A DNA stretch of 64,000 nucleotides from Spirochaetia bacterium (GCA_965203905.1 CBDBDQ010000005.1:2784001-2848000); one strand, 5' to 3'. Shown: positions 36,621 through 62,721, counted from the stretch's first letter. Numbers and translations are program-made. Notes: generated by a model not told the origin, from the sequence alone.

Positions 36621-36722
36621 CAACGCTGAGGTATACCCCGGCAGTTCGCGGCCGCCTGCCGGCGGCTGGCGGGCGGGCTTCGTAGGAGGCGCGTGAGCCG
36701 GACACCTCAAAGGAGCGTCACA

Positions 36723-38618
36723 ATGCTGAAGAAGCTGGTGACAAGTATCGCGCTCGGCGCCCTGGCGCTGGGCACGGCATGGGCCTATAACGAGGCACCG
36801 ATGCTGGCTGCCAAGGTGGCCGCGGGAGAGCTGCCCCCCGTGGATGAGCGGCTGCCGGCCGAGCCGGTGGTGATTACGCCACTCACCGAGGTGGGCGAGT
36901 ATGGCGGCAACCTGAGCGTCGCCATACCGAGCGCGTGGGCGTGGTTCGGCGATCCGCAGTCGGCGGTCGGCCCGGAGACGCTGATGCGCATCGCCACCGA
37001 CTACACCGGGGTGGTGCCCAACATCGTGCGCTCGTGGGACTGGGAGCCGGACGGCAAGACGGTGGTGATGCACTTCGTGCGCGACGCGAAGTGGTCGGAC
37101 GGCGCACCGTTCAGCGCGGATTCGGTCATGTGGTGGTACGACAACATCACCCTGAACGAGACCCTGACGCCGAACCCGCATACGCGCTGGACGCCCGGCG
37201 GCGAGTTGATGAAGCTCACCCAGTTGGACGACTACACCATCCGCTACGAGTTCGCGGCGCCCTACCCGCTGATCGAGATGCAGTATGCGCACTACTCCGG
37301 CGGCCCCTACTCCTATGCGCCGGGGCACTACCTGGAGCAGTTCCACGAGGACTTCCAGGACGCCGACAAGCTGGCGGAGATGGCCAAGGAGGCGGGCTTC
37401 GACGAGTGGCACCAGTTGTTCAACAACAAGAACCGGGTATGCAGCGTCATCTCGTGCGGCGAGCAGCCCACCATGCAGCCCTACGTGCGCATCGCCTCCA
37501 ACCCGCAGAGCCACACCCTGGAGCGCAACCCCTACTACTGGAAGGTCGATCCGGCCGGCAATCAGCTTCCCTACATCGACGGCGTGACCATCCACGTGGT
37601 GCAGGACCGTGAGGTGATGGTGCTGAAGGCGATCCAGGGCGAGTACGACCTGTTCGGCCAGAACAGCGCGCTGGCCGACTTCCCGGTGTACCAGGAGAAC
37701 AAGGACAAGGCCGGTTACGACGTGTACAACTGGCTGGTGACGGACGCCAACCAGATGGGCATCCAGTTCAACCTGACCATCGAGGATCCGGTGAAGCGCG
37801 AGATCTTCCGCGACAAGCGGTTCCGGATCGCGTTCTCCCACGCCATCGACCGCGACGAGGTCAACGAGGCCACCCAGTTCGGGCTGGCGACGCCGATGCA
37901 GGCCACGGTCCACCGCATGACGCCGTGGTTCAAGGAGGAGTACGCCAACGCCCACGTCGAGTACGACCCGGACGAGTCCAACCGGCTGCTCGACCAGATG
38001 GGCCTGGACCAGCGCGACGCGCAGGGCTTCCGGCTGATGCCGGACGGCCGGCGGCTGTCGGTGACCTGGGAATACCCACCCGACACGCACACCTGGGCAC
38101 CGCCGGTGGTGGAGCTGGTGGTGGACTACGCCAAGGACATCGGCCTGGAGGTGCTGGTGAAGGCGGACGACCGCGCGCTCTACGCCGAGCGCGTGCGCCA
38201 GAATCAGGTGGAGATGAACGAGTGGAACGTTGTCGGATTCACCACCACCATGCTGATCGATCCGCGCGTCTGGGTGCCGTGGCGTGACATGGACGAGGCG
38301 GTCTGGTACACGCAATGGCTGTACTGGTACCTGTCCGGCGGCGAGCGTGGCGAGGAGCCAATCGCCGAGGTGAAGCAGATCCGGGAGTGGTGGGAGCAGT
38401 ACACCACCACCGTGGACCTCGCTGAGCGCGACCGGCTGATCGACAACGTGCTGCGCACGCACGCCGAGAACGCCTTCGTGATCGGCGTCATCGGCGACGT
38501 GATGAAGCCGGTGCTGGTGGACAAGAACCTGGTCAACGTGCCCACCGAGGGCGCGCACGGCTACGACGCCATCCGCTTCCAGCCCAACCACCCGGAGCAG
38601 TTCTTCTTCCGCGGCTAG
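36723..38618 (+). CDS. ABC substrate-binding protein, family 5
   Basis: Signal peptide, YNEAPML, GELPPVDERLP, KWSDGAPF, RNPYYWKVDPAGNQLPYID, PEQFFF; AAGGAG RBS. Confidence 0.93.
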   Translation: MLKKLVTSIALGALALGTAWAYNEAPMLAAKVAAGELPPVDERLPAEPVVITPLTEVGEYGGNLSVAIPSAWAWFGDPQSAVGPETLMRIATDYTGVVPNIVRSWDWEPDGKTVVMHFVRDAKWSDGAPFSADSVMWWYDNITLNETLTPNPHTRWTPGGELMKLTQLDDYTIRYEFAAPYPLIEMQYAHYSGGPYSYAPGHYLEQFHEDFQDADKLAEMAKEAGFDEWHQLFNNKNRVCSVISCGEQPTMQPYVRIASNPQSHTLERNPYYWKVDPAGNQLPYIDGVTIHVVQDREVMVLKAIQGEYDLFGQNSALADFPVYQENKDKAGYDVYNWLVTDANQMGIQFNLTIEDPVKREIFRDKRFRIAFSHAIDRDEVNEATQFGLATPMQATVHRMTPWFKEEYANAHVEYDPDESNRLLDQMGLDQRDAQGFRLMPDGRRLSVTWEYPPDTHTWAPPVVELVVDYAKDIGLEVLVKADDRALYAERVRQNQVEMNEWNVVGFTTTMLIDPRVWVPWRDMDEAVWYTQWLYWYLSGGERGEEPIAEVKQIREWWEQYTTTVDLAERDRLIDNVLRTHAENAFVIGVIGDVMKPVLVDKNLVNVPTEGAHGYDAIRFQPNHPEQFFFRG

Positions 38619-38680: not shown

Positions 38681-41600
38681 ATGCATCGGACCTATACCCT
38701 CCTCCTCAACGACACGATGCGGGCGCACCTGGTCTCGCTTGGACGCCGGGCCAGGCAGCGCCTGCGCGAGAAGCTGGACCTGCTGAAGGAGGGCATGTGG
38801 GACGGCGGCATGCGGGTCAAGAAGCTCAAGGGCAGCGGGCGCCGCGTGTTCGAAGCTCGGCTCAGCCGCGGCGACCGCATCCTGTTCACGCTGGGTCAGC
38901 CGGCCGCGGACAACCCCGACACCAGTGACCGGCTGACCCGCATCTACGTCTGGGGCGTGGAGCGGCACGATGACGTGTCGGCCGCGGCACGCCGCATCGT
39001 GCCCGCAAACGCCCCGTTCCTCGATTTCCAGCCCGACGCCGTGGAAGAGTTGCCGGAGGAGGGATTCGTCGACGACCTCGACCAGGCCTGCTTTTCGCCG
39101 GCCCTCGACCGGCCGGCGCACACGCCGGATCCCGCGGCGCCTCCCGACGCCGGGCCGCAGCGCTGGCTGGTGGTGGATGACGAAGAGTGGCGGCGCCTGC
39201 AGACGGCGCACGCCAGCGACCACGTGGAGTTGTACCTGTTCCTGACCCGCGAGCAGGCGCGCCTGCTGCACAGCGAACCGCCGCTGCTGCTGTCCGGCAC
39301 CGCCGGCAGCGGCAAGACCACCATCGCGGTCTACTACCTGTTGCGCCACCGGGTGCGTCAGCTCACGGTTGCCGCCGGAGCGCCGGCGCCTGCCCCGGAG
39401 CCGCGGCCCGGCGGCGAACGGGCACTGTTTCTCACCTACAGCCCCCACCTGAAGCGGCTGTCGGAGCGCATCTACCGCGGCCTGGTCAGGGCCACCGACC
39501 TGGAGCGTGCGCCGCACGCGGTGCGCTTCGCCACCTTCGGCGAGTTGCTGGCGGAAATCCTCGGCCAGCGCGGTGGGGAGCGCTGGCAGGCGGCGCCGGC
39601 CGGGCTGGCCGAGTTCCACTCCATCTACGGGAATCTGCCACGCGCGGCGCGCCACGACCCGGAGCTGGTGTGGGAGGAGATTCGCGCCATAATAAAGGGC
39701 GCGAAGCCGCCGGTGAGCCGGCGCCGGTTTGCCGAGTTGGCGGCACGCTTCCAGGCCGCCGCAGCGACGCAGCGCGAGCGCGGCGAGCTGGCCGAGTACG
39801 TGGTGCGGCTGGCCAATCTGGAACTCGGCGACAAGCTCGACGCGGTGCGTGAGCGCAGGACCTCGTTCGCGACCCTGGCGAAGTTCGCCGCCGGTCTGCG
39901 CGACGGCGACGCCGCCCGCGGGGAGGAGCAGCGGTTCCTGCTGGACGCCGCCCTGCGCCTGCTGGACAAGCAGAGCGCACGTCTTGCCCAACCATTGCTC
40001 ACCTTGCGCGAGTACCAGGGGCTGGGAGCCAAGCGGGCGCCCAACTTCCCGGTCGATCGGAGCGATGTATACCGCATCGCCGAGTACTACCAGCAGCAAC
40101 TCGAGGCCGCCGCCCGCTACGACGAAATCGACTTGACGCGTGCGGCGCTGGAGTACCTGGAGCAGCACGGCGAGCAGTTCCGCTACGACCTGGTGGTATG
40201 TGACGAGGTGCAGGACTTCACCGACGTGCAGCTTGCCCTGCTGTTCCGCCTGGCCGTCGATCCGCGCCGTACCGTGCTCACCGGCGATCCCAAGCAGATC
40301 ATCAATCCCAGCGGCTTCCGCTGGGAGGAGGTGCGCGCGCGCTACTACGAGCGCGGCCTGCCGGTGCCGGAGGTGATCAACCTCAGCATCAACTTTCGGA
40401 GCGTCGGCAACATCGTCAGCCTGGCCAACAAGCTGCTGGAGCTGAAAGGCAGCCTGATCGGCCTGGGCAGCGGCGAGATCGCCGAGCGCTGGACGTTCCG
40501 GGGGCGCCCGCCGCTGCTGATCGAGGATCTTCCGGAATCCGAACTGCTGCGCACGGTGCGACTCGGGGGCGCCGGGCAGGTGGTGCTGGCACGCACCGAA
40601 CGGGAGCGCGACCGGCTGCGCAACGCGCTGCAGACCGAGTTGGTGTTCACCATCGGCGAAGCCAAGGGGTTGGAGTTCGACGCGGTGCTGCTGTGGCGCT
40701 TCTCGGCGACCGAGGGCGCACCGGCCATCTGGCGCCGCATCGCCTCCGACCGCGTCCGCGGCGACGCCGACACGCCCCACATCCGCCACGAGTTGAATCT
40801 GCTGTACGTGGCGGTGACGCGGGCGCGCAACTCGCTGGTGATCTGGGACGGCGAGCAGGTCAGTCCGATCTGGGGCATCGAAACCCTGGCCGATCAGGTG
40901 TATCGATCGGCCGACGCGACCGCCTTCGAGACCATCTGGCAGCGGGTGTCCACGCCAGCCGAGTGGGAAGCACAGGGCGACTACTTCGCCGAGCGCGAGC
41001 ACTACGCCGCCGCCGAAGAGTGCTACCGCCACGCCCAGGCGGTGGACAAGGAGGATCTGGCACGCGCCCGTCGCTTGCAGCAGGAGGGGGATCACCGTGC
41101 CGCCGCCGCGCTGTTCCTGCGCCACGGGCGCGCCGTGCCGGCAGCCGAGAACCTGGAGCGCGCGGCGGCGTTCCGGGAGGCGGCGCGGGCATGGCGGCGC
41201 GCCGGGAACGAGCAGCACGCCACGGCCAGCGAGGCACGCCACTACGAGTCCGTGGGCAACTACGCCGCCGCGGCCAGGCGCTGGGAGCAGCTCGGCGTCG
41301 ACGAAGGCATCCTGCGCAACTGGGAGCGGGGCCGGGAGTTCGGCAAGCTGGCCCAGTACCACCTGGGGCGCAAAGCCGGCGCCGAGGCGGCCCATTACCT
41401 CAAGCTGGCGGGTGACCACGCGGCGGCGGCGGTGCAGTTCCGACGTGCGGGGCTGCTGGAGCTCGCGGCACAGGAGTTCGAGCAGGCCGGCGACCATCAG
41501 CGCGCTGCGACCCTCTACCGGCGCCTGAAGGACGGCGGTGCGTTGCTGCGCTGTCTGCTCCACGGTGGCGCGTATCACGATGCCGGCGAGGAGTACGAGA

Positions 41601-43006
41601 AGCGCGGCGACCTGGAGAAGGCCGCCGAGTGCTTCCGCCGCTACGCCGAAAGCTCTTCCGAGGCACGCCAGGACCTGGAGCGGCGCCTCGCCAGGATCAC
41701 CCCCAAGCGCCCCGGGATGCGGGCCGCGGTCCGGCTGGTCGCCCTGGGGCGTGTGGGCGAGGCGGCACCCATCTACGCCCGGCGCGGCCACCAGGAACGG
41801 GCCGCCGAGCTGTTCAGCGCGGCCGGGCGCCACGACAATGCGGCGCTCTGCCTGGCGCAGTGCGGCCGCTACCGGGAGGCGGCGCGCGAGGCGGTCCGCG
41901 GCGGCGACGCTCAAGGCGTCAGGATGGCCACCTCCTATCTGGCCGACTACCTTACCAGCGACCGGTCCGCGGCGCTGATTCGGATCGGCGAGCTGAACCG
42001 GACCGCCGGCCGTCTGGTACGCAACTCCGACTACGAGCATGCGCTGGCGCACTATCTCGCCATCGACGAGGTGAGCGGCCACCTCTACCTGCACGAGGTG
42101 ACGACCATATACGCCAAGCTCGGGCGCCACGCGGACGCGATCGGATACGCCCTGGACCGGGGTGAGAGCGACCCGGCGAACGCCTATCTGAACGCCCGCC
42201 CCGACCTGGTGCTGCCGCTCGCCGCGGCGGAGTCCCTGGCACGCGGTTCGGAGCACCGGCAGCCGCTGTCGCAGGAGCTCCGCGCCGGCGTGGTCGGCGT
42301 ACTGCTCAGGCTCCTGCACGGTTGCCTGTTTCGGGGTGCGGAGCCCGACCGCCGCGCGCGCATCGCCGCGCTCCTGGAGGCGTTGCCCTCGGGGTTTGCC
42401 TACACCTCGCGCCTGTCCTCGGAGTTGAGCGACCTGATGATCGACCTGCGTCTCTACCATCTGCTGGAGGCCACCGCGAAGTTGCACCGGTACCGGGAGG
42501 AGGGAACTGCCGAGTTGCGCTACTTCCAGGAACGGTTGGAACGGACGGTAATGGAGGAGCGCGACCGGGAACTGGCGCTCTGCCTGCTGCTGGACAGACC
42601 CGACGCGTACGAAGCGGCGATCGCGGAGATAGCGCCGACGGAGCGCAACGTGCCGCTGTTCGCCGAGAGCAGCACGCGCTATGCGGAAGCGGTGGCGATT
42701 CTGCTGGATTCGGGCGCCACGAGGGACGCCGCCGAAATCTGCAGGCGTCATCGCGACCACGCCCATTGTGGCAGGATCTACGAAGAGTCCGGGGATCAGC
42801 AGCGCGCGGGGCGCGCCTATCGCGACGGCGGGCTGTACGCCGACGCCCACCGTTGCTTTGCGGCCTGCGGCGACGAAGCCGGCACGGCGCGCGTGTACGA
42901 GCGCGAGTTGCGCTTCGAGCAGGCGCTGGCCATCTGGCAGCGGCTCGGCCGGAAACGCGAAGTGGAACGGCTGAGGAAGAAGATGGGCCACAACCTCGCC
43001 AGATGA
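38681..43006 (+). CDS. RelE-like N-terminal domain + SF1 (UvrD-like) helicase + TPR-like solenoid (TRANK1-like architecture)
   Basis: N-terminal VKKLKG..VFEARLSRGDRILF..HDD. Helicase motifs LTREQ, GTAGSGKT, LTYS, CDEVQD, TGDPKQ, NFRS, EAKGLEF, LYVAVTRAR. About 650 aa of A-x-x-Y/F-x-x-A-G helical repeats. Confidence 0.85.
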   Translation: MHRTYTLLLNDTMRAHLVSLGRRARQRLREKLDLLKEGMWDGGMRVKKLKGSGRRVFEARLSRGDRILFTLGQPAADNPDTSDRLTRIYVWGVERHDDVSAAARRIVPANAPFLDFQPDAVEELPEEGFVDDLDQACFSPALDRPAHTPDPAAPPDAGPQRWLVVDDEEWRRLQTAHASDHVELYLFLTREQARLLHSEPPLLLSGTAGSGKTTIAVYYLLRHRVRQLTVAAGAPAPAPEPRPGGERALFLTYSPHLKRLSERIYRGLVRATDLERAPHAVRFATFGELLAEILGQRGGERWQAAPAGLAEFHSIYGNLPRAARHDPELVWEEIRAIIKGAKPPVSRRRFAELAARFQAAAATQRERGELAEYVVRLANLELGDKLDAVRERRTSFATLAKFAAGLRDGDAARGEEQRFLLDAALRLLDKQSARLAQPLLTLREYQGLGAKRAPNFPVDRSDVYRIAEYYQQQLEAAARYDEIDLTRAALEYLEQHGEQFRYDLVVCDEVQDFTDVQLALLFRLAVDPRRTVLTGDPKQIINPSGFRWEEVRARYYERGLPVPEVINLSINFRSVGNIVSLANKLLELKGSLIGLGSGEIAERWTFRGRPPLLIEDLPESELLRTVRLGGAGQVVLARTERERDRLRNALQTELVFTIGEAKGLEFDAVLLWRFSATEGAPAIWRRIASDRVRGDADTPHIRHELNLLYVAVTRARNSLVIWDGEQVSPIWGIETLADQVYRSADATAFETIWQRVSTPAEWEAQGDYFAEREHYAAAEECYRHAQAVDKEDLARARRLQQEGDHRAAAALFLRHGRAVPAAENLERAAAFREAARAWRRAGNEQHATASEARHYESVGNYAAAARRWEQLGVDEGILRNWERGREFGKLAQYHLGRKAGAEAAHYLKLAGDHAAAAVQFRRAGLLELAAQEFEQAGDHQRAATLYRRLKDGGALLRCLLHGGAYHDAGEEYEKRGDLEKAAECFRRYAESSSEARQDLERRLARITPKRPGMRAAVRLVALGRVGEAAPIYARRGHQERAAELFSAAGRHDNAALCLAQCGRYREAAREAVRGGDAQGVRMATSYLADYLTSDRSAALIRIGELNRTAGRLVRNSDYEHALAHYLAIDEVSGHLYLHEVTTIYAKLGRHADAIGYALDRGESDPANAYLNARPDLVLPLAAAESLARGSEHRQPLSQELRAGVVGVLLRLLHGCLFRGAEPDRRARIAALLEALPSGFAYTSRLSSELSDLMIDLRLYHLLEATAKLHRYREEGTAELRYFQERLERTVMEERDRELALCLLLDRPDAYEAAIAEIAPTERNVPLFAESSTRYAEAVAILLDSGATRDAAEICRRHRDHAHCGRIYEESGDQQRAGRAYRDGGLYADAHRCFAACGDEAGTARVYERELRFEQALAIWQRLGRKREVERLRKKMGHNLAR

Positions 43007-43078: not shown

Positions 43079-43229
43079 ACGCTGCCATCCATCCGTACGA
43101 GGTATGCGCGCTCGTGTGGCCGCCGGCAGGTCATATGAACCACGAAGCGACGTAAATTCAAGCAATAAATGGGTATTATTCACTTAAGGCTTGACATTCT
43201 CAGTGAAAGGATGCGACGATAGCACACGC

Positions 43230-44102
43230 GTGGCCACTTCCTCTCCTCTCAGAAATCGCATCCAGGCACTGCACCGGGAGTACGCCAGCCTGCGGCCCGG
43301 CAGGGAATCACTCCTGGCGATGATCGACGAGGCGGAGATCCCCGAGAGCGTCTACAACTCCAATGCCATCGAGAACTCCACCCTCACCCTGGAGGAAACC
43401 GAGAAGATCCTGCTGGAGCAGATGCTGTCCCGCAACGTGTCGGTGCGAGAGGTGTTCGAGGCGGTCAACCTGGCGCGCGTCATCGAGTACCAGCGTAAGA
43501 GGGCCGAGGACACGAACCTGGGCAAGGAACGGATCCTGCTGTTGCACCAGATGCTGATCGGAGCGATAGACGACGACAAAGCCGGCCGGTTTCGCCGACG
43601 CGGGGAGTACGTGCGGGTGGGCACCCACATCGCGCCGGCGCCGGAGCAGGTAGAAGGCATGATCGCAGAGACACTGCTGCAGTATGCCAGTGATCTCGAC
43701 TCCTACTTCCTGGACAGGATCGCTCGATTTCACCTGGACTTCGAAGTGATCCATCCCTTTTGCGACGGCAATGGCCGGGTGGGGCGGGTAATCATCAACG
43801 CTCAACTGCAGAAGCTGGGGTTGCCGCCGTTGATCATTCGCAACTCGGAAAAGCAGACCTACTATCGCGCCTTCCGGGAGTACACCGACCGCAAGCGCAC
43901 CGCGACCATGGAGCGGATCCTGGCGCTGGCCCTGCTGGAGTCTCTGCACAAGCGGCGGAGCTATCTCTTGGGGCAACGCATCACTACGCTGTCGGACTAC
44001 ATCAGACAGGAGGGCGAGTCCGCCCCGGCCGTCACCAACGCCGCCCGCCGCCAGACGATTCCAGCCTTTCGCGAAAAGGGAGTGTGGAAGATCGGCCAGT
44101 GA
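43230..44102 (+). CDS. Fic family protein (class II, N-terminal inhibitory motif)
   Basis: HPFCDGNGRVGR Fic motif; SNAIEN matches the (S/T)xxxE(G/N) autoinhibitory helix; short C-terminal HTH-like tail; TTGACA at 43191. Confidence 0.92.
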   Translation: MATSSPLRNRIQALHREYASLRPGRESLLAMIDEAEIPESVYNSNAIENSTLTLEETEKILLEQMLSRNVSVREVFEAVNLARVIEYQRKRAEDTNLGKERILLLHQMLIGAIDDDKAGRFRRRGEYVRVGTHIAPAPEQVEGMIAETLLQYASDLDSYFLDRIARFHLDFEVIHPFCDGNGRVGRVIINAQLQKLGLPPLIIRNSEKQTYYRAFREYTDRKRTATMERILALALLESLHKRRSYLLGQRITTLSDYIRQEGESAPAVTNAARRQTIPAFREKGVWKIGQ

Positions 44103-52554: not shown

Positions 52555-53709
52555 ATGCCGCGTACCTACAAGCTCCTCCTCCACGACACGGTGCGGTCGC
52601 ACGTGGTCTCCCTCGGGCGCCGCGCGCGGCGGCGTCTGCGCGAAAAGCTGGATCTGCTGCAGGAAGGCATGTGGGAAGGCGGCCTGCGGGTCAAGAAGCT
52701 CAGGGGCAGCGGCCGCGCCGTGTTCGAGGCGCGGCTCAGCCACGGCGACCGCATCCTGTTCACCCTGGGACAGCCGCCCGCCGACAACGGCGACGGGGTG
52801 ACCCGCATCTACGTGTGGGGCGTGGAGAAGCACGACGACGTGACGGCCGCGGCGCAGCGCATCGTGCCCGGCAACGCCCCCTTTCTCGACTTCCAGCCCG
52901 ACGCCGTGGAGGAGCTGCCGGAGGAGGTGTTCGTCGACGACTTCGAACCGGCGTACTTCTCGCCTGCCCTCGACCGGCCGGTGCCGGCACACGACACTGC
53001 CGCTCCGCCCGACGCGGGACCGCAGCGCTGGCTGGTGGTGGACGATGAGGAGTGGCGGCGCCTGCAGACGGCGCACGCCAGCGACCACGTGGAGCTGTAC
53101 CTGTTCCTGACCCGCGAGCAGGCGCGTCTGCTGCACAGCGAACCGCCGCTGCTGCTGTCCGGCACCGCCGGCAGCGGCAAGACCACCATCGCGGTCTACT
53201 TCCTGTTGCGAAACCGGGTGCGCCAACTCACGGCTGGCACCGGCGCACCGGCGCTCGCCCCCGAGGCGCGTGGTGGCGGCGAGCGGGCCCTGTTTCTCAC
53301 CTACAGCGCGCATCTGAAGCGGCTGTCGGAGCGCATCTACCGCGGCCTGGTCAGGGCCACGGAGCTGGAGCGTGCGCCGCACGCGGTGCGCTTCGCCACC
53401 TTCGGCGAGCTGCTGGCGGAGATCGTCGGCCACGGCGGCGGGGAGCGGTGGCGGGCGCCACCGTCCGGGCTGGCCGAGTTCCACACCATCTACGGGAATC
53501 TGCCGCGCGCGGCACGCCACGACCCGGAGCTGGTGTGGGAGGAGATCCGGGCCATCATCAAGGGTGCCAAGCCGCCGGTGAGCCGGCGCCGGTTTGCGGA
53601 GCTGGCGGCACGGTTCCAGGCCGCCCAGGCGTCGCAACGCGAGCGCGGCGAGCTGGCGGAGTACGTGGTGCGGCTGGCCAACCTGGAGCTCGGCGGCAAG
53701 CTAGCGTAA
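52555..53709 (+). pseudogene. 5' part of second RelE-like/SF1 helicase/TPR gene, truncated by IS insertion
   Basis: Paralogous to 38681-39838 along its whole length; similarity stops at CTAG 53701, before Walker B. Confidence 0.9.
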
Positions 53710-54500
53710 GTTGATCGTTTTTTTGAGGTATTTTGTTTCTGTGACGCAATTTGTCATTTTTGTTTGTCACTACAATCGACTCCTCCGTAGCGGCGCCGGG
53801 GTGGCCGCTATACGCAGCGCCCGGTAGATCTTGCGGTGCACCAACTCCGGCTGTGACGGCCGCCGCACCCGTAGTACCGTCCCGTCGGTGCACTGGTGCA
53901 CAATGGTTACCATCTGATGGGTTGACAACAGGTCGCGAATCGTCGGCCAGGAACGATGGTCGCCGTGCTCCTGCAGGCGCCGTTCGATGGTGTGCAACAG
54001 GTGGTAGGCCAGCAACGAGATGAAAATGTGCGCGTCCGCCCGTTCGGTACGCTGGTGGAACACCGGACGCAGCCCCAAGTTGCTCTTCAAGTAGCGAAAC
54101 GACCGTTCGATGCGCGCCAGCAGAACGTACAGCTTCCACAGTTCGGCTTCCGTCAAGTCGGTGCGATCGGTGCGCAACAGATAGGTCCCGTCCAGCTCCT
54201 CGGCGAGTTGCTGTGCGGCGTTCTTGCTGGCCCACCTGACTTCCGTTCGACCCTCGTCATCAATGTGCATCTGCACCGTGTAATGCACATATCGTGAGCC
54301 GCCGTCGTCTAATCCCTCTTGGTTTGCCACGGCGCCGCTCCCTATCGCGATACTCAGCACTGGAGCACGAGCGCATGTGCGACGCTCTCGTAGCGCCGCG
54401 CGTGTGCCGCCTGGCGCGAATCACCTGTGCCGCGTTGCGAGCGCAGGCCTTCGCATCGCAAATCAACAGCCGGACGGCGGGCTCCAGTGCTACGCGACGC
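53701..54500 (-). mobile_element. IS1634-family transposase remnant (3' part plus element end)
   Basis: DGTYLLRTD, LY..L..IERSFRYLKS.LGLRPVFHQ...RADAHIFISLLAY in ORF 53770..54360; AT-rich terminal tract 53701-53770; upstream part degenerate. Confidence 0.8.
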
Positions 54501-54635
54501 GCCCGAGCCGTACCGTAGGGGCACCGAAAAGTGGTCAAGTCGGCCTTGCGCCAGTTAATGCATGTATGTATCCTCAATCATCTGGTGTGGTCTGGACAGC
54601 TGCGCCAGCGATGCTCTGCCTAAAGGGGGTGGACA

Positions 54636-54990
54636 ATGGGCCATACACTACAACAGCGCAAAAGGACTACGCTCCCCACGATAGGGTGGCGGTCAATGGT
54701 GGCGTCTGTGGTCGCCACGTTTGCCATGGACGAGGCCGATGCGCGCAGACTTGAAGACAATAACGCGGCCCAGCTGATTGGCGCCTTGCCGTTCCTGGCC
54801 GGTTGCGCTCATCCCGAGCGCACGGCGCTGAGCCATCTCACCACTCTCATCGCGGCATCCCGCAACCCACACGTATTCGGTCAGAAACCGAGCGAGTCGA
54901 TTCGAGATCGCTTGCGGCCGATCGAGACGTTCGAGAATGGCGATCGAGATATCATCGAGCGTGGCATGACGCTGCTCGAGCTGGCCTCCC
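54636..54990 (+). pseudogene. hypothetical protein, probably 3'-disrupted
   Basis: Protein-like N-terminal ~118 aa of ORF 54636..55250; the remainder runs through structured non-coding-like sequence and a poly-G tract. Confidence 0.4.
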
Positions 54991-55143
54991 TAAGCCGCGC
55001 CATTCTTGCCACACCCGCCTGCGACGGCCGTCGCGACCGCGACCACCGCCAACCCCTCGCCCTCGTACTGATCAGTCACGACCCCGACGCGGCTCGCAGT
55101 GCTTTACGCTCGTTCGGGTTCTCGATTACTGTTCCTATCACTC

Positions 55144-55165
55144 GGGGGGGGGGGGGGGGGGGGGG
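55144..55165. repeat. 22-nt poly-G homopolymer
   Basis: Direct count in sequence. Confidence 0.95.
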
Positions 55166-55399
55166 ATACAATCCCGTACTCCACAATCTCCATAAGAGGG
55201 ACTGTGGATTACTGCGGAGCCGAGGAAACGAGAAGTGGTGCATCGGGTAGGGCAGGTGGTGACGCCGTCGAGCGGTAGATCCGTGCATCGGAGGAGGTGA
55301 TGAGGAACTAAACGTAAGCGTGTTCGAGGCGGTGGATCCTATCAGCTAGCACCGCAGCCACGGTTCCAAGAGGGAATCGAGGCCATCATTATTAAGGAG

Positions 55400-55419
55400 G
55401 ATTTTATCTTGATAAAATC
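55400..55419. promoter_or_regulatory. palindromic operator upstream of island ABC operon
   Basis: GATTTTATC-TT-GATAAAATC perfect 9-bp inverted repeat 27 nt before ATG 55447. Confidence 0.55.
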
Positions 55420-55446
55420 GCATATTCTTGAGCAAGGAGAGTTCAT

Positions 55447-57372
55447 ATGAAAAAAATCACTTTGGGTTTCGTTGTCCTTCTGTTGTGTATGAGTGTGCTA
55501 ACTTATGCCGGCGGAACTCAGGACGCATCGGAAGAGCAAACAGCAACAGCAGCAGTGCCAGCAGGGAAGTACAATGAGGCACCGATGCTTGCGGAGCGAG
55601 TGGCAAGGGGTGAGCTTCCGCCTGTGGATGAACGGTTGCCTATAAACCCCTTAGTTCTTACCAAAGAAAGAAACATGGCACCTGACGGGTCACTCGATTA
55701 TGAAATCGGAACATATGGCGGAACCCTGAGAACTATACATCTTCAACCAAGAGGGACCTTTGTAGTATCTGCCATGGCTAAAGAGACATTGTTAAATCGT
55801 CCTGGTTACAACTTGGCAGACCCTCTTACGCCGCACTTAATGGAAGATTTTTCGGTCAATGCGGACAATACGGTTTTTACTTTTCGTATTAGAGAAGGCA
55901 TGAAGTGGTCTGACGGCGTTCCCGTGACAACCGAAGACGTGCAGTTTTATTATGAGGATTTCTATCTCAATAAAGATGTGATCCCCAATGTTTGGATGGA
56001 TCTTAGATCGGGCACAACGCCCCTCGGCGAGCCGTTAACAATTGAGGTTGATGATCAATACACTTATAGGATCATCTTCTCTGAGCCAACACCTCAGTTC
56101 CTTGATCTAAATAACAAGCCGTGGAGTTCTGTTAGAAAGTTTCCCTTGCTTCCCGCGCACTACCTTACGCAGTTTCATCCAAACCACATCTCAGAGCAGG
56201 AGCTGATGAATCAGATCAAGGCGGTTGGACTGGCAAACAGAGAAGACTGGGTCAAGATGTTTCATGCGCGTACTCATCGCGAAAACTGGGATATACCCTC
56301 AGTGATAGGAAGTCCCGTGATCCACCCGTGGATTCTGACGGAAGCGACTCCAACAACAATTGTGAAGGAGAGGAATCCCTACTATTGGAAAGTAGATACC
56401 GCAGGGAATCAGCTTCCGTATATCGACCGAATTGTTAGCACAAAAGTTGAGGACGCGGAAGCTGCTAATTTAAAAATCATAGCGGGAGAGGTAGATCTGG
56501 ACGATATGTTGCCTGCAATCAACTCCCTCCCGTTATATTTGGAGCATGCAGACAGAGCGGGATATCAAGTGGCGCCCATGGCACTGCCCTTCAATCGCAT
56601 AAGTATTTATATGAACTTTGCTCATGAGGATCCCGTATGGAATGAGGTGACCGACGACGTGCGTTTCAGAAGGGCGGTTACCTATGCAATCGATTCCGAA
56701 GATATCAGGCAAAGCGTGTACTATGGATTCGGTGAGCTTCCTCAATGGGTACCCGGTGAGTATGATCCTAACCAGGCCAATGCGCTTCTTGACGAAGCGG
56801 GTCTAGACGAGCGAGATTCCGATGGATGGCGGCTCGGACCAGACGGCAATCGATTCGATGTACCGTTCGAGATTCATGCCCGGTATCCAGATAGAGTACC
56901 GGTGACAGAGCTCGTTGTCGATCATTTAAGAGCCGTGGGTTTGCACGCAAGCTTCAAAGTGATTGATCTGAGTCTATTCGATCAGCGGCTCGAGGCCAAT
57001 CAACCGAAGATAACTGTAGACAGTGATGAAAATGTAACGCTCTATGCATTCGGTCATGCGAAACGATTCTTGCACGGGCGATTTTCCAGTTATCGAAGCT
57101 GGGTCGATACAGGCGGAGTGGAAGGAACAAGGCCGCACGACTGGTGGCTGGAATTGCTAGATCTGGGACTTAAAATGGGTCCCGGGCTTGCGTGGGATGA
57201 AGACGTATATCAGGAGTTTAGGAGCAAGTTTTACGACTACATTCCCCTTATTCACATTCTGCATGATCCGCCGCAGCCTGTTATTATAAACAGTAAGTTG
57301 GGCAATATCTTTACCGAGGGTGTTTCGCAGTGGCTTACTTATTCTGGAGAGCAACTATTCTTTAAAGAATAG
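55447..57372 (+). CDS. ABC substrate-binding protein, family 5 (homolog of 27038..28978)
   Basis: GELPPVDERLP, RPGYNLADPL, DENVTLYAFGH, LKMGPGLAW, GVSQWL.YSGEQLFFK shared with the 27-29 kb SBP. Confidence 0.93.
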   Translation: MKKITLGFVVLLLCMSVLTYAGGTQDASEEQTATAAVPAGKYNEAPMLAERVARGELPPVDERLPINPLVLTKERNMAPDGSLDYEIGTYGGTLRTIHLQPRGTFVVSAMAKETLLNRPGYNLADPLTPHLMEDFSVNADNTVFTFRIREGMKWSDGVPVTTEDVQFYYEDFYLNKDVIPNVWMDLRSGTTPLGEPLTIEVDDQYTYRIIFSEPTPQFLDLNNKPWSSVRKFPLLPAHYLTQFHPNHISEQELMNQIKAVGLANREDWVKMFHARTHRENWDIPSVIGSPVIHPWILTEATPTTIVKERNPYYWKVDTAGNQLPYIDRIVSTKVEDAEAANLKIIAGEVDLDDMLPAINSLPLYLEHADRAGYQVAPMALPFNRISIYMNFAHEDPVWNEVTDDVRFRRAVTYAIDSEDIRQSVYYGFGELPQWVPGEYDPNQANALLDEAGLDERDSDGWRLGPDGNRFDVPFEIHARYPDRVPVTELVVDHLRAVGLHASFKVIDLSLFDQRLEANQPKITVDSDENVTLYAFGHAKRFLHGRFSSYRSWVDTGGVEGTRPHDWWLELLDLGLKMGPGLAWDEDVYQEFRSKFYDYIPLIHILHDPPQPVIINSKLGNIFTEGVSQWLTYSGEQLFFKE

Positions 57373-57402
57373 CAGTATTTCCGATAAGATCGTGTTTTGA
57401 GG

Positions 57403-57438
57403 GTAGGGCACCGATTACATGCGGTGCCCTACTTGTTT
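57403..57438 (+). terminator. stem-loop after SBP gene
   Basis: GTAGGGCACCG-8 nt-CGGTGCCCTAC followed by TTGTTT. Confidence 0.7.
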
Positions 57439-57480
57439 ATAGAATAGTCATATCGCCCATCGCCAATCAGGAGCAATGAA

Positions 57481-58482
57481 GTGCTGTTGTCCTACATTAT
57501 TCGTCGCACTTTACAGTTTATTCCGCTTCTCATTTTTGTATCTATAATAAGTTATGTTATAATTGAGCTCCCTCCCGGCGATATACTGACTATTCATATT
57601 AAGAGCCTTGAGGAACAGGGTGATATTCTGTCACTCGCACAAGTCGAAAACCTGAAGGAGTTTTATGGCTTAGATCAGCCGATGTACGTTCGCTATTTCA
57701 AGTGGATTACAAATATCTTATTTAAAGGCAACTTCGGTTGGTCGTTTGCGTATCAACAGGCGGTGTCCGACCTAATAGGCGACCGAATAGCAACGACCAT
57801 GCTGTTATCCATTACCACTATTGTTTTCACCTACATTGTTGCAATCCCAATAGGAATATTGTCAGCCGTGCGACAGTATTCACCCTTTGATTATTTTTTT
57901 ACATCTGTCGGATTTATCGGTTTGGCAATGCCGAATTTCCTTCTTGCCCTGGTTCTCTTGTGGATCTCGTTTAAGCATTTCGGCATTGCTATTACCGGGC
58001 TTTTCTCTCCTGAATATGTTGATGCCCCTTGGAGCTTGGCGAAGCTAGGGGATCTATTCCAGCACATCTGGGTTGCCGTCGTTGTTATCGGTACGGCCGG
58101 CATGGCCGGGCTCATCCGCGTTCTCAGAGGAAGCTTGTTAGACGAGCTTCGAAAACAGTACGTTATCACTGGCCGAGCGAAGGGGCTTGCTGAAACGAAG
58201 CTTCTCTTCAAATATCCCGTTCGCATCGCTCTGAATCCCGTTATAAGCGGATTAGGTTGGTTGCTCCCCGCGACGATTTCCGGGGCTACAATTACTTCTG
58301 TCGTCCTGAACCTGCCAACAACGGGACCGCTTCTCTTAGCCGCCTTATTATCCCAAGATATGTTCCTTGCTGGGAGTATCGTGATGATACTCAGTTTTTT
58401 GATACTCACAGGAAACCTTCTTTCCGACATCATCCTGGCATTGGTTGATCCACGGATCGAATTCGGAGGAATAGAGGGATGA
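57481..58482 (+). CDS. DppB/OppB-type ABC permease
   Basis: ELPPGD, YVITGRAKGL, QDMFLAG, DPRIEFGG. Confidence 0.93.
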   Translation: MLLSYIIRRTLQFIPLLIFVSIISYVIIELPPGDILTIHIKSLEEQGDILSLAQVENLKEFYGLDQPMYVRYFKWITNILFKGNFGWSFAYQQAVSDLIGDRIATTMLLSITTIVFTYIVAIPIGILSAVRQYSPFDYFFTSVGFIGLAMPNFLLALVLLWISFKHFGIAITGLFSPEYVDAPWSLAKLGDLFQHIWVAVVVIGTAGMAGLIRVLRGSLLDELRKQYVITGRAKGLAETKLLFKYPVRIALNPVISGLGWLLPATISGATITSVVLNLPTTGPLLLAALLSQDMFLAGSIVMILSFLILTGNLLSDIILALVDPRIEFGGIEG

Positions 58483-59588
58483 AGAATAGGAAGGAGCAAA
58501 AGGTAGATAGCTACTACGTAGCCTCGCAATGGCGGCTGATGTGGCTCAAGCTGAAGAAGCATAAGCTGGCCATGTTCTCAGCGGTCGTTTTGGCATGCTT
58601 ATATTTTGTGGCAATATTCTGCGAGATGATAAGTCCGTTCACACCTAATGAACGGTTCCGAGAATATACGAGCTCCCCTCCAAATGCTATCCGTTTATTT
58701 AGTATGGACAATGGCTTTAGGCTTTCTCCCTACGTGGTAGGGCTGGAACGAGAGAGAGATCCTAAGACGCTGAGATTTATCTATGTTCCAAATGAGGCTC
58801 GGAAGTATCCGGTTTCCCTATTTTCTAGAGGCAGCACATACAAATTTTGGGGATTATTTGAGACCGATGTGCATCTATTTGCGTCAGAAGCGGGCGCGCC
58901 GTTGTTTCTGTTCGGCACGGACCGCTTGGGCAGAGATCTCTTTACGCGGATTGTATATGCATCTCGCATTTCTCTTTCGGTCGGACTGATCGGGGTCTTT
59001 CTCAGCACTTTTTTTGGAATACTGTTGGGCGGTATTGCAGGATATTTTGGCGGCACGGTGGATACCATAGTCATGCGCACGGTTGATCTACTAGCCTCCT
59101 TGCCGGCTATACCACTTTGGATGGCATTGGCTGCCGCAGTGCCCGCGGATTGGTCAGTTGTAGCGACTTATTTTGCAATAACGATCATCCTATCGCTACT
59201 TGGCTGGGTCAGGCTTGCGCGCGTCGTGCGAGGCAAGTTTCTCTCGCTTCGCAATGAAGATTTCGTGATGGCGGCAAAGGTATCGGCAGCACCCCAACTA
59301 GCAATAATATTCCGGCACTTAATACCTTCGTTTCTCAGCTATATTCTGGTTTCACTTACTTTGGAGATACCCGGAATGATTCTCGGAGAGACGGCCCTAA
59401 GTTTCTTAGGATTAGGTATGCAAGCCCCCGCTGTCAGTTGGGGAACTCTCTTGCGGGATGCACAAAGTCTGCAAGCCATTTCACAGCAATCTTGGGTGCT
59501 CATGCCGTGCATCTTTGTGATTGTCACCGTAATGATGTTTAACTTTTTTGGTGACGGACTCCGAGATGCTGCGGATCCGTACAGGTAA
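58479..59588 (+). CDS. DppC/OppC-type ABC permease
   Basis: GTDRLGRD, ILGETALSFLGLG, GDGLRDAADPY. Confidence 0.93.
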   Translation: MKNRKEQKVDSYYVASQWRLMWLKLKKHKLAMFSAVVLACLYFVAIFCEMISPFTPNERFREYTSSPPNAIRLFSMDNGFRLSPYVVGLERERDPKTLRFIYVPNEARKYPVSLFSRGSTYKFWGLFETDVHLFASEAGAPLFLFGTDRLGRDLFTRIVYASRISLSVGLIGVFLSTFFGILLGGIAGYFGGTVDTIVMRTVDLLASLPAIPLWMALAAAVPADWSVVATYFAITIILSLLGWVRLARVVRGKFLSLRNEDFVMAAKVSAAPQLAIIFRHLIPSFLSYILVSLTLEIPGMILGETALSFLGLGMQAPAVSWGTLLRDAQSLQAISQQSWVLMPCIFVIVTVMMFNFFGDGLRDAADPYR

Positions 59589-59710
59589 GGTCACATCCCA
59601 ATGACGCATTACGCTACGCATTTGGCGCTAAAGTCCGCAGCTTGCCGCAAAACGACGGAGAGGAGCGATATGGGCGTCGTGGGACCACGGCATAACGGAA
59701 GGAGAAACGG

Positions 59711-59830
59711 ATGGACCTTGGACTGAAGAACAAAGTGGCTGGTGTAACCGGCTCGAGCAGGGGAATTGGGCGAGCAATCGCGCATAAGCTTGCCGAGGAG
59801 GGATGCCATGTAAGCCTGTGCGCCCGTACT
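59711..59830 (+). pseudogene. SDR oxidoreductase N-terminal fragment
   Basis: [35 protein letters not shown] with GGAG RBS; cut after about 40 codons by an IS fragment. Confidence 0.85.
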
Positions 59831-59840
59831 ATTGGACCTA

Positions 59841-60003
59841 GTCTCACCCCGCAGGATGCTCAGCACCAGCGCGGAGCGCCTCTTGGCCGTCCTGCGCTGC
59901 ACTGACTCCGCCCCTCTCTCCTCTTTCTCTGTCACGGCTTCCACCCTTCCTCCTCATGCTTACCATCTGTCTTAAGGGTGGCTCTCCGTTTCTGGGAGCA
60001 GCA
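59841..60003 (-). mobile_element. IS3-like element left end with OrfA (DUF1153-like) fragment
   Basis: Minus strand begins TGCTGCTCCCAGAAACGGAGAGCCAC, then GAGGAGG RBS and [21 protein letters not shown]. Confidence 0.6.
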
Positions 60004-60144
60004 TTTCGCGTCAATTGTGGCAATAAATCGGCTTTTTTGCTGTAATGATGCGAAAATTGCTTGCAAATTTTGCCGTATAGCGTACACTATATTGATTGCT
60101 ATATTTGTTATTGCATTTTAGTCAGTAGTTGGGGCCCGAAAGAG

Positions 60145-61605
60145 ATGAACAATCCGAATCTTCTTTTTATCTACACAGACGAACAGGCATTCAACACTCT
60201 TGAGGCCTATGGCAACTCCGAGATCTCCATGCCGAATCTCAATCGGCTTGCCGAACGGTCAGTGGTATTCGACCAGGCCTATGTCACGCAGCCGGTTTGC
60301 ACACCGTCGCGCTCGACACTGCTGACGGGTCTTTACCCGCACACAAATGGCTGCACAGCGAACAATGTGCCGCTTCGACCGGAGACACGGTGCCTGCCGG
60401 AAATGCTCGCCGGCGGAGACTACGTGACCGCTCACTTCGGCAAATGGCATCTGGGCGATGAACTCTACGCCCAACACGGTTTTGGTGAATGGATCGGAAT
60501 CGAGGACGGCTATAACCAATACAACGGCAAAGGTAAAGACCGGAGTATTCGTTCCGGCTACCATCATTACCTGATAGAATGCGGCCTTGCTCCACGGAAT
60601 GGTAAGACATTCAGTCGAGAGGAGGCCGCACGACTCCCGGAAGAACACGGCAAACCGGCATTTCTCGCTCGCGAAGCATCTCGTTTCATCCGTGCAAATA
60701 GAAATGACCCTTTCGCTCTGTATGTAAACTTCCTTGAGCCGCACATGCCTTACTTTGGGCCACGGGACAATCAGTATGACCCTCGAACAATCCCCTTGCC
60801 GCCGAACTTCGACGCAGTATTAGATGACTCGCAGCCCCTGAAGGCTCGCGCATTCGCGCAAGCCTATCGCGAATGGGGCCATAGCGGCATGCCGTTGCGG
60901 ACCCCGGAAGACTGGCGACGCCTGATCGCTAACTACTGGGGCCTCTGCAGTCTTATCGACACACATATCGGCACTATTCTCAATACGCTGGAGGAATCGG
61001 GCATGAGTGACAATACCATCGTGGTATTCACCTCCGATCATGGCGATATGATGGGAAGTCATGGTCTGACAGCGAAAAGCGTGATGTTCGAAGAGGCTGT
61101 CCGTGTTCCGTTGATGATTCGTCTTCCCAACCAGGATCAGGGGAAGCACGTCAGCGGACCAGTCAGCCATATTGATGTCGTCCCCACGCTACTTGATTTA
61201 ATGAACCAACCGATACCACCGCACCTGCAGGGAAAGAGTCTCCGTGGACTACTTGAGACCGAAAAAGCAACCAGCACTGGGAGTGTCTTCATTGAATGGA
61301 ATGGTCACAACACCGGCTTCGTGGGAGAAGAATGGGGCAGCTTCCCGATGCCTTCCGCGCTCGAAGGAGTGGTTTCACGCGAGGAAGTGGAGACGGCCGT
61401 TTCCGACCCGGTTCGGACCGTGGTCACACCCGACGGGTGGAAATTGAACCATAGTCAACGCGGAGAGCACGAACTCTATGACCTGTCCTCGGATCCCGGA
61501 GAGACAGAGAACTTGTTCTACCGAACGGAGAGCGCGCCCATTGTGGATAGACTGAAGGAAGAGATTGCCCGGTGGCAGAAGCGCACGGGCGACGCCAAAT
61601 GGTAA
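60145..61605 (+). CDS. sulfatase (choline-sulfatase/arylsulfatase-like)
   Basis: PNLLFIYTDEQ, CTPSRSTLLTG, GKWHLG, FTSDHGDMMG.HG, ELYDL..DPGE. Confidence 0.95.
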   Translation: MNNPNLLFIYTDEQAFNTLEAYGNSEISMPNLNRLAERSVVFDQAYVTQPVCTPSRSTLLTGLYPHTNGCTANNVPLRPETRCLPEMLAGGDYVTAHFGKWHLGDELYAQHGFGEWIGIEDGYNQYNGKGKDRSIRSGYHHYLIECGLAPRNGKTFSREEAARLPEEHGKPAFLAREASRFIRANRNDPFALYVNFLEPHMPYFGPRDNQYDPRTIPLPPNFDAVLDDSQPLKARAFAQAYREWGHSGMPLRTPEDWRRLIANYWGLCSLIDTHIGTILNTLEESGMSDNTIVVFTSDHGDMMGSHGLTAKSVMFEEAVRVPLMIRLPNQDQGKHVSGPVSHIDVVPTLLDLMNQPIPPHLQGKSLRGLLETEKATSTGSVFIEWNGHNTGFVGEEWGSFPMPSALEGVVSREEVETAVSDPVRTVVTPDGWKLNHSQRGEHELYDLSSDPGETENLFYRTESAPIVDRLKEEIARWQKRTGDAKW

Positions 61606-61735
61606 AAGAGCCGCTTCGTGAAGAGCCCATACGTCGTAAGTGCTCGACGGAATGAGGAATACTACTCGCCAGTGGTAAAAGACTAAAGCGTATTTGCGTT
61701 GCACTATATGTGGAAATCAAATAAAGCCCAATGAA

Positions 61736-62435
61736 ATGACTGAAAGGAAATCAATGTTGTAGCCGGTCACAATAGCTTTCATTGCTGATGTTCACTACGG
61801 AACAACGTCGCCTATTCCACGCCGTCGTTGTGAGATAGCAGATATTCTGCTGAAGCGAGCGGTCTACCGGCTGAACAGGCTGGTTCGGCCTGATGTCACG
61901 CTGATCCTGGGCGATGTGATAGATGACGGTAGTTCCCCTGACGCCGAGAGGAGTTTGCTTCAACTTCGCTCAATCCTCGATAAGCTGGATTCACCTTACA
62001 TCACGATTCCCGGGAATCATGACATTGATCCGGAGAAAATTCTAACGAGTCTTCGACCGCCCGCATGACGTTGAGGATATTGCTGGAATCCGGTTTCTGA
62101 CGTTTGTCGACCAAGAAGAACCCGGGTACAACGCCAGACGTAGCAACCGTAATCTTGAGGGGTGGACCTCTCCATAAGCGGTCATCATCATCCTGGGTGC
62201 GAGGATAAGAGTGATGGTGGCATACTGTTTGTGAACGCCCCGGGGCTGTGCGAAGCACCATTCCCTTATCTTGTAGTCACTATCGACGGCGAGGAGATCA
62301 ACACCTGTCGCCACGAATTGGCCATGCCGGCAGAATTGCAGCTGGTTGACAATCATGTGCATACGCAATTGGCGTATTGCGCCGAGGATGTGACCATTGA
62401 GCGCTGTATCCAACTCGCTGGAGACTTTGGTCTTA
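61736..62435 (+). pseudogene. calcineurin-like metallophosphoesterase + PHP-domain pseudogene
   Basis: In-frame TAG at 61760, then IADVHYG, LGDVIDDG, PGNHD; frameshifts; later VDNHVHTQLAYC; truncated. Confidence 0.75.
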
Positions 62436-62438
62436 ATG

Positions 62439-62498
62439 ACAGAACAGAGCGTTGCGCGGCGACGCGGCAAACCGCGCGTGTGAACACCGTCGTTAGCT
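62439..62498 (+). other. solitary integron attC-like site (degenerate)
   Basis: ACAGAAC-5 nt-GTTGCGCG ... CGCGG CAAA CCGCG ... GTGTGAAC-6 nt-GTTAGCT; 60 nt with R''/L''/L'/R' spacing. Confidence 0.55.
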
Positions 62499-62502
62499 GG
62501 CT

Positions 62503-62715: not shown

Positions 62716-62721
62716 GGCGAT

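Follow-up and report, generated by a model that had tools for sequence, protein, structure and literature searches.

A 64,000-nucleotide stretch of the genome of a Spirochaetia bacterium (GCA_965203905.1, CBDBDQ010000005.1:2784001-2848000; hereafter, the window) encodes a protein of 1441 amino acids (aa) that combines an N-terminal domain (N-domain) predicted to adopt the fold of RelE/ParE toxins, a superfamily 1 (SF1) helicase and a C-terminal alpha-solenoid, and that is, judging by sequence comparison, a homolog of the core of the animal protein TRANK1, but not a member with the full TRANK1 architecture. The protein is the product of an intact gene (copy 1) at nucleotides (nt) 38681..43006 of the plus strand and represents a rare bacterial family, for which we favor, tentatively and with somewhat less than even confidence, a role as a stand-alone, ATP-driven conflict (immune-type) protein.

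The gene starts with ATG and has a GC content of 0.75/0.50/0.86 at codon positions 1/2/3, like the other genes of the window (about 70% GC). Long spurious frames are abundant at this composition, and a 1522-aa antisense frame overlaps copy 1; the coding signature is found only in the plus frame, which is also the one matched by hundreds of full-length homologs. The open reading frame (ORF) described in an earlier, sequence-only reading of this DNA is thus exact in coordinates and length, and the three-part layout proposed there, with a RelE-type domain, a helicase and a helical C-terminus in this order, is borne out by fold, motif and homology tests. The same reading stated that no antitoxin gene is adjacent, and indeed, no small antitoxin-like ORF was found in the gaps that flank copy 1, 62 nt upstream and 185 nt downstream.

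Predicted RelE-type fold of the N-terminal domain

The N-domain (aa 1-105; nt 38681..38995, plus strand) was delineated from an AlphaFold2 (AF2) model, fold matches, invariant alignment columns and its basic character, with an isoelectric point (pI) of 11.2 and 23 Lys and Arg against 13 Asp and Glu residues within aa 1-110. The AF2 model of aa 1-125, built from 42 aligned sequences, has a predicted local distance difference test (pLDDT) value of 78.4, with low confidence beyond aa 110, and the order of secondary structure elements is b-a-a-b-b-b-b-a. In a Foldseek search of the PDB, the top match is the archaeal RelE (1wmi; E 1.2e-4, target-normalized TM-score 0.70), followed by YoeB (7v6w) and RelE (2khe), the best matches falling between E 1e-4 and 9e-4. 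A search independent of Foldseek, against 48,161 representative chains (VIA), returned in rows 1-23 exclusively toxins of the RelE/YoeB/HigB/ParE/YafQ types or the RelE domain of Cami1, with Z values from 9.7 down to 6.2, and unrelated proteins start at Z of 5.0 or less. The assignment of the RelE/ParE (BECR-fold) toxin fold to this basic domain of about 110 aa, originally suggested by its sequence pattern, therefore holds at the level of the predicted structure.

Ten positions show no variation across 44 diverse N-domains (L35, G38, K48, E58, R66, T70, G72, Y89, W91 and H96), and three others, K47, R60 and D97, are conserved at a level of 90% or more. The invariant Glu/Arg/His/Lys set comprises the candidate catalytic residues; on the RelE fold, the Glu/Arg/His set may resemble those of YoeB and of small microbial RNases. 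At the sequence level, the N-domain is isolated: no Pfam, NCBIfam or PDB sequence match covers it, and the best PDB match of the single sequence has an E value of only 0.36. The only PDB entry matched by the 44-sequence profile is Thermococcus McrB, through its N-terminal domain; this weak match (E 0.0037) was attributed to chance or a shared strand motif and discounted because the fold searches return RelE-type toxins.

The acidic linker and the absence of an antitoxin gene

The N-domain is followed by an acidic linker (aa 106-160; nt 38996..39160, plus strand), recognized by its pI and by invariant residues. At its start is the motif N-x-P-F-L-x-F (aa 110-116; nt 39008-39028, plus strand; N110, P112, F113, L114 and F116 invariant), the pI of aa 111-160 is 4.1, and aa 106-160 include a single basic residue (Lys or Arg) against 12 Asp and Glu. 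Placed after a basic RelE-fold domain, the linker might serve as a built-in antitoxin-like segment. A complex prediction for the N-domain and the linker scored 0.10, against a mark of 0.32, which gives no answer and counts as evidence neither way. As to a partner encoded elsewhere nearby, no real conserved neighbor was found across 70 loci, the top cluster (12 loci) consisting of ORFs that overlap the start of the gene itself, and the neighbors in 49 loci are heterogeneous.

A RelE-fold domain without a separate antitoxin, the succession of a basic domain and an acidic linker, and the location of plasmid relatives beside partition genes would all fit a selfish single-gene addiction module, in which the rest of the protein acts as an antitoxin in cis and the gene is kept because its loss or damage is harmful, with no benefit to the host. 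We consider such a module highly improbable: the 1300 aa of conserved motor and solenoid far exceed the needs of neutralization, the helicase motifs are invariant, the chromosomal position is stable within genera, and one copy of the gene has decayed in this genome.

The helicase core

The UvrD-type SF1 helicase core (aa ~161-740; nt 39161..40900, plus strand) is identified by Pfam models, invariant motifs and PDB sequence matches to UvrD and PcrA. As claimed from the sequence, the set of SF1 motifs is complete: each of Q, I, Ia, II, III, IV, V and VI was located and shows no variation among 29 aligned homologs, with the Walker A sequence GTAGSGKT (motif I) at nt 39296-39319 and DEVQD (motif II) at nt 40202-40216, both on the plus strand. 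A conserved insert lies inside the core at aa ~300-440. Among Pfam models, UvrD-helicase reaches 46.3 bits (cut-off 23) and UvrD_C 39.1 bits (cut-off 25.6); UvrD_C_2 and AAA_19 also exceed their cut-offs. None of the named NCBIfam equivalogs of repair helicases (UvrD, PcrA, Rep, RecB, AddA, HelD) reaches its cut-off; the best, PcrA, scores 48.7 bits against a cut-off of 911, and the others 16-41 bits against 419-1168.

These features bear on the possibility that the protein is a helicase for DNA transactions (repair, recombination or removal of replication conflicts), with the RelE/ParE-fold domain as a non-catalytic binder or a ParE-like module directed against a DNA enzyme and the solenoid as a scaffold. 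Such a role, which we consider improbable, would agree with a motor that is UvrD/PcrA-like by sequence; with a Metallophos gene that adjoins the homolog in two of the related loci and an AAA_27/SMC_N-type ATPase gene that follows it in another (L033); and with an AddAB/AdnAB-like pair in the window itself (nt 29073-35257, minus strand, 3.4 kb upstream of copy 1), consisting of a UvrD helicase with a PD-(D/E)XK domain and a partner with a C-terminal PD-(D/E)XK domain. The nearest named clusters of the N-domain in the ESM Atlas are ParE-like as well (0.93), with ParE families annotated on 10-21% of the members, which is to be taken as a lead only. The invariant Glu/Arg/His/Lys set of the N-domain points instead to catalysis, the repair-helicase equivalogs stay far below their cut-offs, and the AddAB/AdnAB-like pair is encoded on the other strand, was not found beside the homolog in any of 80 related loci and is unrelated to the finding. 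Like the addiction module, a role of the DNA-repair type is less likely than either the immune reading or the surveillance reading discussed next.

The C-terminal solenoid

The junction motif (aa 757-782) and the alpha-solenoid (aa 745-1441, 697 aa) together occupy nt 40913..43003 of the plus strand and were delimited with AF2, Foldseek and profile searches. The AF2 model of aa 745-1441 (pLDDT 92.8) contains 48 short helices and no strands of three or more residues; helices of about 10 residues alternate with 3-residue turns, making a short, regular repeat, and conserved Ala-Ala pairs recur about every 13 residues. The C-terminus is thus predicted to be a tetratricopeptide repeat (TPR)-like alpha-solenoid, with tandem helical hairpins arranged in a superhelix. 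At E<=0.001, Foldseek returned 83 matches in the PDB, with CTR9, IFT-A and SKI3 at the top and the TPR region of OGT and clathrin also among them; the E values reach 3e-7 but the TM-scores are only 0.1-0.2, so that no specific relative of the solenoid can be named. In sequence searches, the family profile matches the TPR region of the eukaryotic intraflagellar transport (IFT-A) protein IFT144 (E 6.6e-10). None of the Pfam models of the canonical 34-residue TPR scores above its cut-off, and TPR_GEMI5 alone gives a signal (14.8 bits against 33). The long TPR-like helical C-terminus claimed from the sequence is thus supported as a predicted solenoid fold. The solenoid is the fastest-changing part of the protein: among distant homologs, identity is 20% in its most variable stretch (aa 1101-1290), compared with 48% in the N-domain and 46-56% in the helicase.

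The protein could alternatively be a cellular RNA or translation surveillance factor and not an immune one, in which case the helicase and the solenoid would dock on stalled ribosomes or on transcription-translation complexes and the RelE-like domain would cut mRNA, much as in eukaryotic no-go decay with its SKI helicase-TPR complex. We consider this possibility rather unlikely, although clearly less so than a DNA-transaction role. Besides SKI3, which is one TPR protein among others and matches at the low TM-scores given above, it is consistent with the fold matches of the N-domain, which include RelE-family toxins, Cami1 and ribosome-bound RelE entries, and with the conservation of length and layout across phyla; against it, the SKI3 match is no better than those to unrelated TPR proteins. 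The remaining evidence on surveillance comes from distribution and gene neighborhoods and is given below.

Homology to the core of TRANK1

TRANK1, the TPR and ankyrin repeat-containing protein 1, is also known as the lupus brain antigen 1 homolog. The sequence-only reading pointed to four segments of the bacterial protein as similar to the helicase-TPR junction of TRANK1, and this likeness proved real: the segments (aa 630-636, 657-672, 704-716 and 757-769) each align with pangolin TRANK1, all within a single BLASTP alignment of aa 440-871 to residues 1366-1861 (29% identity, E 3e-40) that spans the helicase, the junction and the first repeats. Weaker collinear segments include Walker A, the conserved insert motif and later repeats, and the core of the N-domain (aa 35-72) aligns with residues 864-902 at 40% identity. 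When aa 480-900 were used to search for longer proteins in a database of 5.8 billion sequences, 21 matches were obtained, among them TRANK1 of three mammals (E 4e-22 to 6e-21), TRANK1-like proteins of a snail and a soft coral, and proteins of Allomyces, Thelephora, Pelomyxa and Paramecium.

The relationship extends to the N-domain. A hidden Markov model (HMM) of the bacterial N-domain matches 8 of these 21 long eukaryotic proteins and 8 of 9 further TRANK1 orthologs, in both cases at E<0.01 (Lingula, 6e-11; lamprey, 1e-7), and always just upstream of the helicase. An hhalign comparison of the bacterial N-domain profile with seven eukaryotic segments gives a probability of 97.7% (E 2.5e-12, 87 columns), a figure flattered by the preselection of the segments by HMM match. 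The Glu, Arg, Trp and His positions of the N-domain are kept in mammalian TRANK1.

Mammalian, coral and unnamed eukaryotic sequences keep the equivalents of both Glu58 and His96, and the snail TRANK1-like protein (residues ~420-526) has Gln and Tyr at these two positions; if the two residues act as a catalytic pair, their joint loss would be expected. In the ESM Atlas, the Lingula TRANK1 segment finds ParE clusters at only 0.83, which is a lead and not support.

As a control, the generic UvrD-type (AddA-like) protein of the window has no match to the TRANK1 core at E<=1e-3, a threshold at which 214 of 270 bacterial family members do match it (local BLAST). A search of shorter database proteins with the TRANK1 core did not inform on bacteria, its 120 listed rows being eukaryotic TRANK1 fragments, and the prokaryotic-looking clusters in this search were rejected as they contain coral and tubeworm proteins.

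The bacterial protein and TRANK1 share the N-domain, helicase, junction motif and repeats in collinear order, and TRANK1-like proteins are also present in fungi, ciliates and amoebae. The animal protein differs in being twice as long (~2900 aa), with N-terminal TPR and ankyrin repeats, neither of which is detected by Pfam in the bacterial protein; it carries long inserts in a loop of the N-domain, and the overall identity is about 29%.

Distribution of the family

Full-length relatives (~1400-1480 aa) share about 40% identity over 99% of the length and come from metagenome-assembled genomes labeled Spirochaetota, Desulfobacterota, Neomarinimicrobiota, Ignavibacteria/Bacteroidota and Acidobacteriota. 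The family is rare: in a database of 1.84 billion proteins, the N-domain profile retrieved no more than 217 cluster representatives at E<=1e-3. Almost all of these matches lie at the start of proteins of 800-1900 aa, and the short ones look like fragments at contig ends. A UvrD-type helicase follows the N-domain in all 25 distant members scanned, many of which also show TPR, Clathrin, SNAP or IFT-type repeat matches, and one has an extra N-terminal OB fold. Together with the consistent N-terminal placement, this implies that the N-domain occurs obligatorily with this helicase clade, whereas the length of the tail varies.

Among 61 related genomes, 31 have a match. In the own family of the bacterium, 21 of 23 species carry the gene, and the two genomes without a match are 81% and 90% complete; elsewhere in the order, the occurrence is patchy (by family: 4/8, 1/5, 1/2, 1/2, 0/8, 2/7 and 0/5). 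Across the phylum, sampled evenly, the N-domain was detected in 10 of 301 genomes, seven of them from one family (7/17), and was not found in three well-sampled families (0/28, 0/45 and 0/38).

Shorter relatives, with 1095 and 962 aa and with the N-domain included, are encoded on two cyanobacterial plasmids. The gene for one of them lies beside GmrSD_N and DUF3696-ATPase genes and integrases, and that for the other is followed by a gene for a NERD-UvrD helicase. Separately, over 100 plasmid records of Shigella, Escherichia and Piscirickettsia contain a UvrD-type protein that matches only aa 444/445-739/788, with 26-29% identity; such proteins may form a branch of this clade made up of the helicase alone.

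Paralogs and rates of change

The own genome contains three copies of the gene within 32 kb. The sequence-only reading had noted a duplication in the window; a second copy does exist there, but it is broken. Its N-terminal piece, a pseudogene fragment that covers aa 1-389 of the family and ends in a stop (one TAA), is located at nt 52555..53712 of the plus strand, with aa 1-386 (nt 52555-53703) 86% identical to copy 1 by tblastn; the helicase remainder starts from aa 558 at nt 63175..63999 (plus strand; aa 558-832, 88% identical), runs off the window and continues beyond it with frame breaks. The intact copy 3 comes next, past the window end (G000:C5:2849998-2854413; L002 637-5118). It encodes 1478 aa, is 66% identical to copy 1 and is orthologous to a syntenic gene of related genomes. 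In a quick maximum-likelihood tree, at least four paralog lineages are seen within the genus, with copy 3 grouping with the homologs of the syntenic loci L014, L015 and L018, and copy 1 with the homolog of L022. Copy 3 is 70-77% identical to its syntenic orthologs, compared with 86-95% for the flanking transporter, hydantoinase and racemase genes.

Weighing the proposed roles

We favor a conflict role because of the patchy spread across phyla, the birth and decay of paralogs, the change that is faster than that of neighboring genes, the hypervariable tail and the plasmid relatives located beside defense genes. Two reports on other proteins lend themselves to the same direction: TRANK1 has been called an interferon-stimulated gene (PMC10269786), and a preprint mentions a RelE-like-helicase fusion encoded next to Tiamat.

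Under the conflict reading, we infer the following course of events. The solenoid, alone or together with the helicase, would recognize a protein or nucleic acid ligand that is foreign or aberrant, upon which ATP binding or translocation by the helicase would free or position the N-domain. The N-domain might then act as an endoribonuclease by means of the invariant Glu58, Arg60/Arg66, His96 and lysines, cutting mRNA either on the ribosome or during its exit from the motor, which would halt translation in the invader or the infected cell. Speculatively, the acidic linker could restrain the basic N-domain in cis.

Several observations weigh against a conflict role or against parts of this mechanism. 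The presence of the gene in 21 of the 23 own-family species, together with its synteny in three Marinimicrobia loci, looks like stable vertical inheritance. Gene neighborhoods were assessed in 49 of the 80 related loci, which make up nearly all of those that have flanking DNA and are ~32-47% identical to the query, by taking, on each side, the two closest ORFs with a length of 100 aa or more under a longest-ORF rule (148 ORFs in total). In these diverse chromosomal loci, the neighbors are mostly metabolic or housekeeping genes, such as those for glycine cleavage, enoyl-CoA hydratase, glutamine synthetase and a tRNA synthetase, and a cyclophilin-patatin-DsbD group is syntenic beside the homolog in three Marinimicrobia loci. 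Credible defense neighbors by PADLOC (E<=1e-12) occur in only 3 of the 49 loci, namely, a type I methyltransferase (L031) and PDC-S01 (L070, L075), the other matches being to generic domains; Pfam adds AbiEii (L029), an integrase (L043), DUF4258 (L082) and DUF6079 (L069). A search of 50,697 phage records gave no match. No PADLOC system model fits the copy 1 protein, which gives only partial GajB/UvrD-type matches of at most 41.9 bits. With regard to the effector, the active-site assignment remains a candidate one that rests on conservation and fold; no curated RelE/ParE model, and no Pfam family at E<=10, matches the window N-domain, and among 44 homologous N-domains, faint Gp49 matches were obtained for three (best E 0.018). 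Finally, UvrD-type helicases usually act on DNA, so that an RNA target is not assured.

The three-part layout noted in the sequence-only reading thus survives, as do the RelE-type fold and the relationship to TRANK1, and the role of an autoinhibited anti-phage or ribosome-surveillance protein would be an interpretation of these features. The surveillance role is kept alive by the housekeeping neighborhoods and by the stable inheritance within the family. It is opposed by the occurrence of the N-domain in just 10 of the 301 sampled genomes of the phylum, by the several paralogs with a decayed copy and faster change than in the neighbors, and by the plasmid relatives that adjoin defense genes. 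On balance, the conflict role remains the one that we favor.

In a broader form, which appears doubtful and ranks below the conflict role itself, the combination of a RelE-fold domain, a helicase and a solenoid could be an ancient helicase-gated RNase immune effector common to bacteria and eukaryotes, such that vertebrate TRANK1 would be a RelE-type RNase with an SF1 motor. If this were true, it would provide the first testable molecular hypothesis for TRANK1, with the bacterial proteins as a tractable, simple model. TRANK1 is known from psychiatric genetics, as a leading risk locus for bipolar disorder, and from interferon responses; to our knowledge, it has no known biochemistry. The literature that we found on it consists of genome-wide association and expression studies, which do not describe a biochemical function.

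Local genomic setting

The two pieces of copy 2 are separated by an insertion of about 9.4 kb (nt 53713..63174) with a GC content of 0.47-0.57, compared with about 0.70 around it. Pfam searches identified, in this insertion, a DDE transposase remnant (nt 53770-54360, minus strand), a peptide-type ATP-binding cassette (ABC) transporter with a binding protein and two permeases (nt 55447-59588), a sulfatase (nt 60061-61605) and, from nt 62722 onward, the remnant of an IS91 zinc domain, which forms an in-frame fusion with the rest of copy 2. The insertion looks like foreign cargo brought by insertion elements; no terminal repeats or tRNA gene that would delimit it, or a larger island, were found.

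Upstream of copy 1, at a distance of 62 nt, is a gene for an SBP_bac_5 peptide-binding protein (nt 36693..38618, plus strand); genes of this type also adjoin the homolog in three loci of the same genus (L015, L018 and L032). Downstream, after 185 nt, comes a Fic-domain gene (nt 43191..44102, plus strand; Pfam Fic, 69 bits). The sequence-only reading was correct on this adjacency, but a conserved link is not supported: Fic was found in 1 of the 80 related loci (L014), where it lies about 7 kb upstream of the homolog and immediately precedes the hydantoinase genes, an arrangement also seen in the window, so that its position next to copy 1 looks incidental.

Elsewhere in the window, the region at nt 14000-24000 has a lower GC content (0.57-0.63), encodes a sugar-type ABC transporter, a DUF3604 protein and a NUDIX-domain protein, and may have been acquired. 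Between the racemase and permease genes, a 335-aa ORF (nt 48937-49944, plus strand) with a strong coding signal (third-position GC of 0.90) and no Pfam match sits in a stretch of unusually high GC skew (0.158). Public runs labeled as sponge or coral metagenomes (X3, X7 and X16) contain many short contigs 85-99% identical to the gene, and the organism or close relatives, with several variants or paralogs, may live in sponge or coral hosts; these contigs are short fragments of several related strains or paralogs, too fragmented to trace variation along the gene.

Comparison with known systems

Multi-domain RelE/ParE toxins and helicase-nuclease defense proteins are already known kinds of proteins. 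The three-part family described here is absent from the curated libraries tested, in that the N-domain is not represented in Pfam and no model of NCBIfam or PADLOC fits. No description of the family or of a bacterial TRANK1 relative was found in the literature searched, a search whose coverage stopped short of subscription journals and supplements; a survey from 2025 that covers multi-domain RelE/ParE toxins uses the terms helicase, UvrD, TPR and TRANK1 0 times in its main text. Should the N-domain be an active RNase, the family would couple an effector that blocks translation to an ATP motor in a new manner.

Several known systems resemble the protein in part. With the type II toxins RelE, YoeB, HigB, YafQ and ParE, the N-domain shares the predicted fold, the domain size (Z 8-9.7 over 81-103 residues, target TM-score 0.70-0.76) and the basic character; unlike them, it has no antitoxin gene and no match to curated models, and it is fused to a motor and solenoid of 1300 aa. 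Cami1, a CARF-RelE ribonuclease of type III CRISPR signaling, likewise joins a RelE effector and a sensor in one polypeptide (Z 7.7 over 97 residues), but its sensor is a CARF domain that binds cyclic oligoadenylate, it has neither a helicase nor a solenoid, and it is encoded in CRISPR loci. Nhi and Hna are single-protein nuclease-helicase defenses; with these and with GajB of Gabija, the window protein has in common an SF1 helicase coupled to a (here, putative) nuclease effector, and its best PADLOC matches are of the GajB/UvrD type. The effectors of the nuclease-helicase defenses are, however, DNases of a fold other than that of the N-domain, and copy 1 matches GajB only partially, as noted above, with no GajA neighbor. 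Tiamat, beside which the RelE-like-helicase fusion mentioned above is encoded, was not found next to copy 1 or next to its homologs in the 49 loci assessed.

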